A DNA stretch of 28,269 nucleotides from Candidatus Sigynarchaeum calidifontis. Its GTDB lineage: Archaea > Asgardarchaeota > Lokiarchaeia > Sigyniarchaeales > Sigyniarchaeaceae. Below are positions 11,411-12,874 of this stretch, piece after piece. The stretch spans positions 1 through 28,269 of the forward strand of contig JAUQYZ020000005.1 in assembly GCA_030587475.2 (NCBI GenBank), given 5' to 3'. The translations under genes and the position numbers were made by a program. The first letter of the stretch is position 1, and each line of letters starts with the position of its first letter. Below the pieces are notes generated by a model. The model saw only the letters and a list, made by a program, of their open reading frames with translations, was not told the origin of the DNA and did not search any database.

Positions 11411-12874
11411 ATGTCCGAAATTCCGCCTGGTACACCCGTGATCGTGGATATAGGAGAAGCGGCTTGCAAGATCGGCATCGCGGGAGACATGGTACCCCGG
11501 GAACGATTTCCTACGATCGTGGGGCGGGAGAAATACCAGTCCGTGATGGTGGACACGAGCGAGCGCGTCCGTTCGGCCTACGTCGGGAATGATGCACAAT
11601 CGATGCGTGGCGTGCTCAAGATCGTTTATCCCATGAGCCGTGGCCAGATCATGGACTGGAACGCGTTTTATGAGGTCTTGAACCACATCTTCTACAACGT
11701 GCTACGCCTGGACATGCGAATGTATCCCGTGATCTATTCAGAGCCGATCCTCAACCCGCCGAATTTGCGCGAACACCTGGCCAAGGTGTTTTTCGAGACG
11801 TACCAGATGCCAGCCATCGTCATCTTCCCGTCTGCGGTCATGGCACTCGTCAACGCGGGCCTCTCGACCGGTATGGTCGTGGAGATCGGCGAGGGCATGG
11901 CACACATCGTCCCGATAAACGAGGGCGAGGTGCTCACCTATGCGGTAAACAGGTTGCCTCTCGGCGGCGTGGACGTGAACGAGAACCTCAAGAATTTTCT
12001 CATGCAGGAGGGTATCAACCTCAACTACTCGGCGCAAAAGGAGATCTTGCGCGACATCAAGGAAAAACTGTGTTACGTGGCGGAAGACATCAACACGGAG
12101 TCGCAAAACGCGTACAAGATGAACATCCGGCGCCCGTACACGCTCCCCGACGGGACGGTAATCCAAATAGGAAACAGCCGGTTCATGGCGCCCGAGATCT
12201 TGTTCACGCCGGGCATGCTTGGCTATAACACCATGTCCATAACGCAAGCGATAATCGACTCGGTTTCCAAGGTTCCGGCGGAGATCAAGCGTGCCATGCT
12301 CGGCAACATTGTCTTGAGCGGCGGGAGCACCAAGTTCCCCGGTTTCGAGAAGCGGCTCGAGCGGGAACTCGACCAATGGATACCGCAGCTCGGGCCGCTG
12401 CCGGAATCACGCACCATCCAGAAAGCGCTTGCACAGTACAAGCCGCAGCTCGTGTCCATCGATGCGCCCATACAAGTACCCGGCACATCAGGGGCTGGTA
12501 ACATCAATTCTTGCCCCGAGTGCGGGCACGACATCGACACGGCCAAGGACCAGTTCTGTTCTAATTGCGGGCACCAGGTGGTCACGCAGAAGATCAAGAT
12601 CAAACCAGTGCAAGTCGCCACGGCGCCGTCCGACGCGTTCGGCGAGGCGTCCGAATTCAACGACCCGGATCAACCGACAACGACCCAATCCAGTAGTGGT
12701 ATCGTTCGAATCATCTCCTCCGGCGATCGAGAGACGGCCACCTTCCGTGGCGCCTCCAAGCTTGGCACGATGCGAGGCGTTTTCGAGTCCATCAAGATCA
12801 CGAGGGAGGCTTTCTACGCGAATCCCCAGGTTATTCATGCCAGCATACTCAAGCAAATCTTCTCCCTCATCTAG
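11411..12874 (+). CDS. Asgard actin-related protein with Zn-ribbon-containing insertion
   Basis: Phosphate-1 VIVDIGEAACKIGIAGD; FPTIVGR..YVGNDAQSMRGVL; phosphate-2 VVEIGEGMAHIVPI; LGGVDV; DIKEKLCYVA; YTLPDG..RFMAPEILF; NIVLSGGSTKFPGFEKRL. Insert at aa ~326-430. Confidence 0.93.
   Translation: MSEIPPGTPVIVDIGEAACKIGIAGDMVPRERFPTIVGREKYQSVMVDTSERVRSAYVGNDAQSMRGVLKIVYPMSRGQIMDWNAFYEVLNHIFYNVLRLDMRMYPVIYSEPILNPPNLREHLAKVFFETYQMPAIVIFPSAVMALVNAGLSTGMVVEIGEGMAHIVPINEGEVLTYAVNRLPLGGVDVNENLKNFLMQEGINLNYSAQKEILRDIKEKLCYVAEDINTESQNAYKMNIRRPYTLPDGTVIQIGNSRFMAPEILFTPGMLGYNTMSITQAIIDSVSKVPAEIKRAMLGNIVLSGGSTKFPGFEKRLERELDQWIPQLGPLPESRTIQKALAQYKPQLVSIDAPIQVPGTSGAGNINSCPECGHDIDTAKDQFCSNCGHQVVTQKIKIKPVQVATAPSDAFGEASEFNDPDQPTTTQSSSGIVRIISSGDRETATFRGASKLGTMRGVFESIKITREAFYANPQVIHASILKQIFSLI

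Follow-up and report, generated by a model that had tools for sequence, protein, structure and literature searches.

A conserved zinc-ribbon insert and a genetically linked surface-protein partner in an actin-related protein of Candidatus Sigynarchaeum calidifontis

The 28,269-nucleotide stretch of Candidatus Sigynarchaeum calidifontis DNA analysed here (contig JAUQYZ020000005.1 of assembly GCA_030587475.2, positions 1 to 28,269; hereafter the window) encodes an actin-related protein (ARP) whose actin fold carries a 105-residue insert with a zinc ribbon. The ARP belongs to a clade separate from Lokiactin and actin, and its gene is followed, throughout most of the window's order, by a gene for a predicted membrane-anchored toroid surface protein. 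We infer that this ARP, rather than building bulk filaments, works as a low-copy factor on the cytoplasmic side of the membrane together with the toroid partner, and we tentatively propose that it is a non-filament, membrane-proximal adaptor or anchor. Four features are new here: the insert with its zinc ribbon, the linear motifs within it, a sister clade of one-ribbon ARPs and a conserved surface protein as partner. No description of any of them was found in the literature searched, where the clade has a published member that appears only as a name in a tree.

Architecture of the zinc-ribbon insert

The ARP gene is divided as follows, with conservation given as the majority-residue fraction within the one-ribbon clade described below (0.88 for the core, for comparison) and taken from a profile of 17 one-ribbon and 70 two-ribbon sequences.

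11411-12874, + strand: zinc-ribbon ARP, whole gene; open reading frame (ORF) of 487 aa plus stop, matching Pfam Actin
11411-12385, + strand: N-terminal part of the actin core (residues 1-325), comprising subdomains 1, 2 and 4 and most of 3, aligning to actin 8-322
12386-12409, + strand: start of the insert, proline motif QLGPLPES, residues 326-333; conservation 0.78
12410-12466, + strand: insert stretch ...QK...YKPxLVS..., residues 334-352; conservation 0.72, low model confidence from residue 345
12467-12505, + strand: first flexible tether (residues 353-365), with many P, G, S and T residues; conservation 0.50
12506-12580, + strand: C4 zinc ribbon, residues 366-390 (Cys 368, 371, 383 and 386), CxxC-x11-CxxC
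12581-12637, + strand: second tether, residues 391-409; conservation 0.50
12638-12670, + strand: acidic motif FGEASEFNDPD, residues 410-420; conservation 0.85
12671-12700, + strand: last part of the insert (residues 421-430), through which the chain rejoins the actin strand (alignment to actin from about residues 427-431); variable and T/S/Q-rich, conservation 0.62
12701-12871, + strand: actin core, C-terminal part, residues 431-487, aligning to actin 317-366
12839-12871, + strand: C-terminal amphipathic extension, residues 477-487, beyond the end of actin

The insert (105 aa, residues 326-430, 12386-12700) replaces the loop of subdomain 3 formed by actin residues ~322-328 on the barbed-end side, a site near K326/K328 of actin, which face outward in F-actin. 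Because alignments to actin stop at residue 325 and resume at ~427, residues 326-430 have no actin counterpart, and these are exactly the coordinates at which a preliminary description of this DNA had placed an insert of ~105 aa. The zinc ribbon, CPEC (368-371)-x11-CSNC (383-386), is the motif previously written as CPECG-x10-FCSNCG, counted otherwise, and contains the only cysteines of the ARP outside the core; all four are invariant in 87 homologues (17 close and 70 more distant). Pfam ribbon profiles score below their cut-offs in the window ARP (PF13240, Zn_Ribbon_1, 22.8 versus 25 bits; PF13248, 20.9 versus 27 bits) and are passed by its relatives. In the AlphaFold2 model the ribbon forms two short strand pairs with a predicted local distance difference test score (pLDDT) of 70-85, and the surrounding tethers fall below 50 at residues 345-355, 359-362 and 396-399, as expected for the flexible linkers that had been noticed around the ribbon. 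The second tether occupies the position of the second ribbon in the two-ribbon clade.

The best-conserved part of the insert apart from the cysteines is FGEASEFNDPD, within which a short helix is predicted at residues 414-416. The general forms of the two linear motifs are PxLGPLP and the acidic FGEAxEFxDPD; the LG/P positions of the former, which follows a helix as P-x-L-G-x-[LI]-P, and the A-x-E-F core of the latter are common to the two-ribbon clade as well. The insert as a whole is acidic (7 K+R versus 11 D+E, net charge -4), and the ribbon itself is not basic. The insert is a conserved, tethered, acidic module with a predicted zinc ribbon, and both the model and the conservation profile agree with the earlier suggestion that the module is built into the protein. 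When the insert alone was searched with phmmer against 1.84 billion representative proteins, the only full-length match was the clade's own representative, and the other matches covered the ribbon part alone in multi-ribbon repeat proteins. Since only the ribbon is matched outside the clade, the module as a whole is peculiar to these ARPs; no stand-alone ancestor of it was found in the same search, and a search of the ESM Atlas with the insert alone returned no usable match.

An identical ARP protein is present on three contigs, and the architecture with the insert recurs at 66-88% identity in independent metagenome-assembled genomes (MAGs) of JGI, NCBI and ENA. Compared with the same-genus orthologue, the ratio of nonsynonymous to synonymous substitution rates (dN/dS) amounts to 0.215 in the insert and 0.057 in the core (dS ~0.8), which indicates that the insert is under purifying selection, as judged from these alignments. 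GC content is similar in insert and core (0.60 versus 0.56). An assembly artefact, which the preliminary description had considered, an intein and a foreign insertion were all rejected given the conserved in-frame flanks, the similar GC content, the purifying selection and the concordance of independent assemblies.

Actin fold, nucleotide site and filament-contact surfaces

Pfam Actin (PF00022) matches residues 8-324 of the ARP (E 1.3e-82; 278 bits against a cut-off of 27), and solved actins match residues 10-325 at E ~1e-84, with the alignment resuming at residues 427-476. Among solved structures, the 60 best sequence matches listed consist of actins only, without a single Arp. The structure prediction that had been recommended earlier yields a confident actin core with a tethered ribbon: the AlphaFold2 model (102 homologues) has a mean pLDDT of 84.5, with the core above 90, and its best Foldseek matches are actins with TM-scores of 0.92-0.94 (target-normalised), both indicating that the four-subdomain actin fold is kept. 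Actin and Lokiactin are by far the closest relatives (40-43% identity over the core), and 150 of 371 residues (40%) are identical between the ARP and the genome's own Lokiactin.

The genome contains three actin-family genes, namely the Lokiactin gene (contig C144), the zinc-ribbon ARP and a divergent third. The latter (contig C125:42346-43407, minus strand) is very divergent, with 27-30% identity, and its ORF as read begins at approximately actin residue 50, so that phosphate loop 1 seems to be missing or encoded elsewhere.

In phosphate loop 1, DNGTG of Lokiactin is replaced by DIGEA in the ARP (S14E and G15A in actin numbering). Further changes at the hydrolysis site are Q137S and D154E, and of the canonical hydrolysis residues S14, G15, Q137, D154 and H161 only H161 is retained. 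The adenine-side motifs GGST.F and RDIKE are also retained. The surfaces through which actin subunits contact each other were compared using residue sets from the actin literature and known F-actin structures rather than a model of the ARP itself. On the pointed-end face 17 of 34 residues are identical to the genome's own Lokiactin, and both proteins share a KYxS[VI]M DNase I-binding loop (D-loop) with the same two-residue length difference from actin. On the barbed-end face 14 of 47 residues are identical, with only 1 of 12 in loop 283-294, and the changes Y143V and F169E sit in the cleft that receives a D-loop. Within the ribbon-ARP clade all filament-contact surfaces are well conserved (0.8-0.96).

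The ARP ends in an extension, [QKA]S[IF]LK[QER]IF..., that reaches seven residues past the C-terminus of actin, is conserved in the clade and has a hydrophobic moment of 0.5-0.65, with a helix predicted by AlphaFold2 at residues 480-486. By analogy with other actin-fold and membrane-associated proteins, it could bind the membrane (FtsA- or MinD-like) or fill the ARP's own barbed-end groove (Arp3-like).

Phylogeny and distribution of ribbon ARPs

In a tree of 53 sequences (IQ-TREE 'quick', computed without the insert columns and with Lokiactins and eukaryotic actins as root) the ribbon ARPs are monophyletic and separate from Lokiactin and actin (100 SH-like approximate likelihood ratio test, SH-aLRT), which bears out the view of the window protein as a specialised ARP. 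The one-ribbon ARPs of the window's family form a single clade (100) that is sister (96) to all other ribbon ARPs. A second one-ribbon group, which includes Ca. Lokiarchaeum ossiferum, is nested among two-ribbon forms, and therefore ribbon number has changed at least twice. For the window's family, an ancestral single ribbon and a loss both fit the tree, which cannot tell the two apart. The preliminary description had allowed for the insert being a common feature of an already characterised Asgard ARP clade: it is indeed common to a whole clade of Asgard ARPs, and no paper characterising that clade was found in the literature searched.

Protein searches recovered 19 close relatives with one ribbon each (479-496 aa when complete) and ~70 relatives of 504-586 aa and 35-46% identity with two ribbons each at the same site. 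A ribbon-ARP gene occurs in each family of the window's order represented among the 40 nearest species genomes; the window's own family (four genomes) encodes the one-ribbon form, and the orthologues in its three other genomes are 72-89% identical to the window ARP. The window ARP shares with the rest of the clade the ribbon insert at the same alignment columns, the linear motifs and the downstream toroid gene. When 301 genomes sampled evenly across the phylum were searched, only the window's order gave matches extending past residue ~330 in frames of ~500 aa, and other orders and classes yielded only Lokiactin-type matches covering residues 3-327 in frames of ~385 aa. A wider distribution, as the Thor-, Heimdall-, Hod- and Bathyarchaeota names of some homologues at NCBI might suggest, was rejected on the basis of this sample; these labels are probably loose MAG names, since matches past residue ~330 are confined to the window's order. 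NCBI lists one member of the one-ribbon clade (P0016, WJJB01000122.1) as 'Candidatus Bathyarchaeota', although the genome it comes from belongs to the window's family, a discrepancy of possible relevance to the 'bathyactins' of Da Cunha et al., 2022 (PMC8850707). The possibility that the ARP is itself a Lokiactin was discarded, as it falls in a separate clade, has a large insert that Lokiactins of ~380 aa lack, and co-occurs with a Lokiactin encoded elsewhere in the same genome.

Genetic pairing with a toroid surface protein

The gene downstream of the ARP encodes the following protein:

12984-14153, + strand: toroid surface protein of 389 aa, 110 bp after the ARP stop, with a GTG start

This putative partner has two hydrophobic helices, an N-terminal signal peptide and a C-terminal membrane helix, and ends in a basic tail of ~6 residues, KRRNRI. 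In between lies a prenyltransferase-beta-like alpha/alpha toroid (PF00432 at 1.1e-20), for which the model has a pLDDT of 82 and the best Foldseek matches are the beta subunits of RabGGTase and GGTase-III (E ~1e-9). The signal peptide and the C-terminal membrane helix together place the toroid outside the cell, and a cytosolic prenyltransferase beta subunit was consequently rejected, the fold being compatible with it and the topology not. Nine N-x-S/T sequons are present in the window protein, and the number ranges from four to nine among partner proteins. In comparison with NCBIfam families of C-terminal sorting signals no match was obtained, which neither supports nor excludes an archaeosortase-type signal.

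Open frames were read at 28 loci, and there the ARP gene is followed by a gene of the same architecture, which lies on the same strand 41-363 bp downstream and encodes 362-407 aa. The tails follow the pattern [WY][RK][RKY][KR][RN][RKQ]I-COOH, with a terminal isoleucine in 22 of 27, and the predicted cytoplasmic parts of these proteins consist of short basic stretches only. In 78 of 87 examined genomes of the order, from four families, the two genes sit side by side in the same orientation; the nine exceptions comprise one separated pair, two genomes without either gene, four cases at contig ends and two fragmentary genomes. The genomes without either gene are G012 (family f4, 100% complete) and G013 (76% complete), and as G036 of the same genus has both genes side by side, G012 looks like a case of joint loss. 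The pairing persists where ARP identity drops to 33% and partner identity to ~20%. ARP and partner have the same taxonomic range: in the phylum sample the partner profile reaches 299 bits or more in 73 of the order's 76 genomes and never exceeds 142 bits outside the order. The upstream neighbour of the ARP gene, encoding an enoyl-CoA hydratase, is conserved within the genus only. The spacer between ARP and partner genes (12872-12983) contains an oligo-T run after the stop codon (12885-12890) and a T-rich/TATA-like box (12924-12935) ~50 bp before the GTG start.

The orthologous pair in Ca. Lokiarchaeum ossiferum

The cultured Ca. L. ossiferum encodes an orthologous pair for which published data are available. 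Its ribbon ARP, UYP44711.1 (NEF87_000996), is one of three proteins named 'ARPs', with no further description, in this organism, and its transcript was detected by quantitative reverse transcription PCR (Rodrigues-Oliveira et al., 2023; PMC9834061). L. ossiferum crawls by means of adhesion-dependent and Lokiactin-dependent protrusions (Radler et al., Nature 2026, PMC13716822; preprint 10.1101/2025.11.30.690169). In the same study, co-immunoprecipitation (Co-IP) of Lokiactin from the supernatant of a mild-detergent lysate enriched five gelsolins, one profilin and an ARF GTPase, BAR proteins not reaching significance, and the published list of Lokiactin interactions contains no membrane anchor (PMC13716822).

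The GNAMCCOK identifiers of the proteomic data were mapped by mass and gene order, in agreement with a running offset to the UYP accessions: GNAMCCOK_01003 (31.93 kDa) is a FolD-like gene and GNAMCCOK_01004 (41.88 kDa) the toroid partner, hence GNAMCCOK_01005 is the ARP. In the proteome the partner has a mean of 21.46 (log2; rank ~73) and Lokiactin a mean of 21.69 (rank ~59), and the ARP, detected in 16 of 16 columns, has a mean of 16.12, corresponding to ~1/47 of Lokiactin and ~1/40 of the partner. These proteome and Co-IP figures concern an orthologue with 33% identity and not the organism of the window. Given an abundance near that of Lokiactin, the toroid protein may be a main component of the cells' surface coat.

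Comparison with known actin-fold systems

UYP44711.1 resembles the window ARP in belonging to the same clade, in carrying a one-ribbon insert at the same loop and in being followed directly by a toroid gene; in contrast, it is only ~33% identical, and its single ribbon, nested among two-ribbon forms, is probably the result of a secondary loss. The two L. ossiferum papers mention neither its insert nor the toroid partner. Two-ribbon ARPs, such as MCF2140085.1 of Ca. Harpocratesius repetitus (Pfam Actin + DZR, PF12773), share with the window ARP the insertion site, the LPQLGP and A-x-E-F motifs, the changes in catalytic residues and the partner gene, and differ from it in having two ribbons, a length of 504-586 aa and a tryptophan in place of H161, with an identity of ~38-45% to the window ARP. 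The window ARP is closer to Lokiactin and actin than the two-ribbon ARPs are. With yeast actin (1yag), 'HC1 actin' (9wc4) and Lokiactin it has in common the fold and 40-43% core identity, and with Lokiactin also the D-loop, whereas the 105-aa insert, the changed hydrolysis residues and barbed-end cleft, the C-terminal extension, the separate clade and the low abundance set it apart.

Eukaryotic ARPs with loop insertions (Arp3, Arp4 and Arp8) are likewise actin folds specialised through insertions, and an ARP can end a filament rather than extend it, as does Arp11 of dynactin. We know of no eukaryotic ARP with a zinc ribbon in this loop. The diversification of ARPs through loop insertions, a hallmark of eukaryotes, also arises independently in archaea, as the window ARP shows. 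A comparison in terms of how they work is offered by FtsA, with its C-terminal amphipathic helix, and by MreB with RodZ, in which an actin fold is coupled to the membrane by a helix and/or a nearby-encoded single-pass partner. The window ARP similarly has a conserved amphipathic C-terminal extension and a predicted single-pass partner. In contrast to FtsA and MreB, with which it shares no sequence relationship beyond the fold, its membrane binding is only putative, and the partner has a tail of ~6 residues where RodZ has a folded cytoplasmic domain.

Possible functions

A role in bulk filaments is unlikely for this ARP because its hydrolysis residues are replaced (S14E, G15A, Q137S and D154E) and its L. 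ossiferum orthologue is ~47-fold rarer than Lokiactin, in keeping with the earlier suggestion that it is not a bulk filament subunit. As an adaptor or anchor, the ARP would dock through its pointed-end face (the Lokiactin-like D-loop and subdomain 4) on Lokiactin, most likely at the barbed end of a filament, and its own remodelled barbed-end face together with the insert would stop further growth. The acidic motif and ribbon of the insert, perhaps with the amphipathic extension, would hold the complex at the membrane via the short basic cytoplasmic tail(s) of the partner or via the lipid surface. Binding to Lokiactin, to the partner tail or to the membrane is what we infer from the sequences. 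This proposal is favoured by the gene pairing and co-distribution, by the Lokiactin-like pointed face, by the match of an acidic insert with a basic partner tail, by purifying selection on the insert, and by insert motifs common to clades only ~40% identical to each other. An abundance of ~1/47 of Lokiactin is as expected for a factor bound to ends or sites rather than a subunit. Several observations weigh against it. One genome (G003) keeps the ARP and toroid genes 708 kb apart, and given the oligo-T run and AT-rich box in the spacer the two genes may be transcribed separately. No ARP-toroid fusion was found in a search for fused forms longer than 853 aa, which recovered only eukaryotic or other actin fusions covering the core. 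In the Lokiactin Co-IP the partner is not enriched (ratio -0.017), and the ARP is absent from the rows listed, which extend down to a ratio of -1.04 and do not distinguish an undetected from a depleted protein. Furthermore, with a partner ~40 times as abundant as the ARP, most partner molecules cannot be ARP-bound; the Co-IP result, this 40:1 excess, the possible separate promoter and the lack of a fusion together argue against a simple stable complex. The insertion site lies partly on the outer surface of F-actin, so that a tethered insert need not block polymerisation, and the gap in conservation between pointed and barbed faces is modest, based on small numbers and on interface lists from the actin literature, and suggestive rather than decisive.

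The same sequence features would suit a soluble regulator of Lokiactin, acting as a cap, a nucleator or a binder of monomers, with an insert that recruits a different partner and with a toroid protein linked to it by inherited gene order or shared regulation only. The Lokiactin-like D-loop, the altered barbed face, the lost hydrolysis residues and the low abundance are all consistent with such a protein, as are the terminator-like T-run and AT-rich box in the spacer, a partner tail of only ~6 residues and the separated genes of G003. We nevertheless consider it less likely than an adaptor or anchor, as the two genes have stayed side by side in 78 of 87 genomes from four families where the surrounding genes differ, their taxonomic ranges are identical and both are missing from a complete genome; in addition, the Lokiactin Co-IP does not list the ARP orthologue as enriched. 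It is distinctly unlikely that the ARP is a polymerising subunit, forming its own filament or co-polymerising with Lokiactin and displaying the ribbon module as a binding platform. The actin fold is complete, the contact surfaces conserved at 0.8-0.96 within the clade could reflect co-evolved homotypic contacts, and the tethers would let a module near the outward-facing K326/K328 swing clear of the filament; however, S14E, G15A, Q137S and D154E alter the catalytic centre, the cleft that receives the D-loop is changed (Y143V, F169E and 1 of 12 identities in loop 283-294), the orthologue reaches ~1/47 of Lokiactin, and the only filaments described in L. ossiferum have been assigned to Lokiactin (PMC9834061).

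A regulatory or nucleic acid-linked ARP, comparable to nuclear Arp4 and Arp8 and with a ribbon that binds DNA or RNA, is very improbable. Zinc ribbons often bind nucleic acids and a tandem GTAATTC repeat precedes the ARP gene, but the insert is acidic and its ribbon lacks a basic character, the gene conserved next to the ARP gene encodes a surface protein rather than a DNA-related one, and no palindromic box array was found. We give least weight of all to a role apart from filaments, in which the actin-fold protein would assist the toroid protein in its biogenesis, sorting or turnover and the insert would read the signal or tail of the partner during export. Such a helper could account for the tight gene pairing and co-distribution, for the conserved partner tail ending in isoleucine and for an ARP that is sub-stoichiometric to the partner; yet with 42-43% identity the ARP is most closely akin, by a wide margin, to actin and Lokiactin and not to folds of the Hsp70 or sugar-kinase type, its D-loop resembles that of Lokiactin, and the partner matches no known sorting-signal family.

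The proposed adaptor or anchor, an ARP with a docking module, is a concrete candidate for tying actin filaments to the membrane and the surface coat. The candidate link is genetically coupled, across the order, to a surface protein as abundant as Lokiactin, and both proteins are present in a cultured strain. By analogy, ARP and toroid together might span the membrane and connect the Lokiactin skeleton with the surface coat, as an archaeal counterpart of the actin-adhesion 'clutch' of eukaryotes; we regard this extended role as speculative and unlikely. If true, it would help to explain the anchoring of filaments in protrusions and the transmission of force during the crawling of Loki-type Asgard cells.

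Flanking genes and upstream sequences

In most relatives (including loci L052, L055-L058 and L060) the toroid gene is followed by a FolD-like gene (methylene-tetrahydrofolate dehydrogenase/cyclohydrolase). The window instead encodes Mtd (methylene-tetrahydromethanopterin (H4MPT) dehydrogenase, PF01993) at 14271-15128 on the minus strand, and thus a different C1-carrier enzyme lies just past the ARP-toroid pair. Upstream of the ARP gene, the region 11321-11356 contains the tandem repeat GTAATTC GTAATTC and, after it, at a distance of ~55 bp from the ATG, an AT-rich box (aaaaattaaat).

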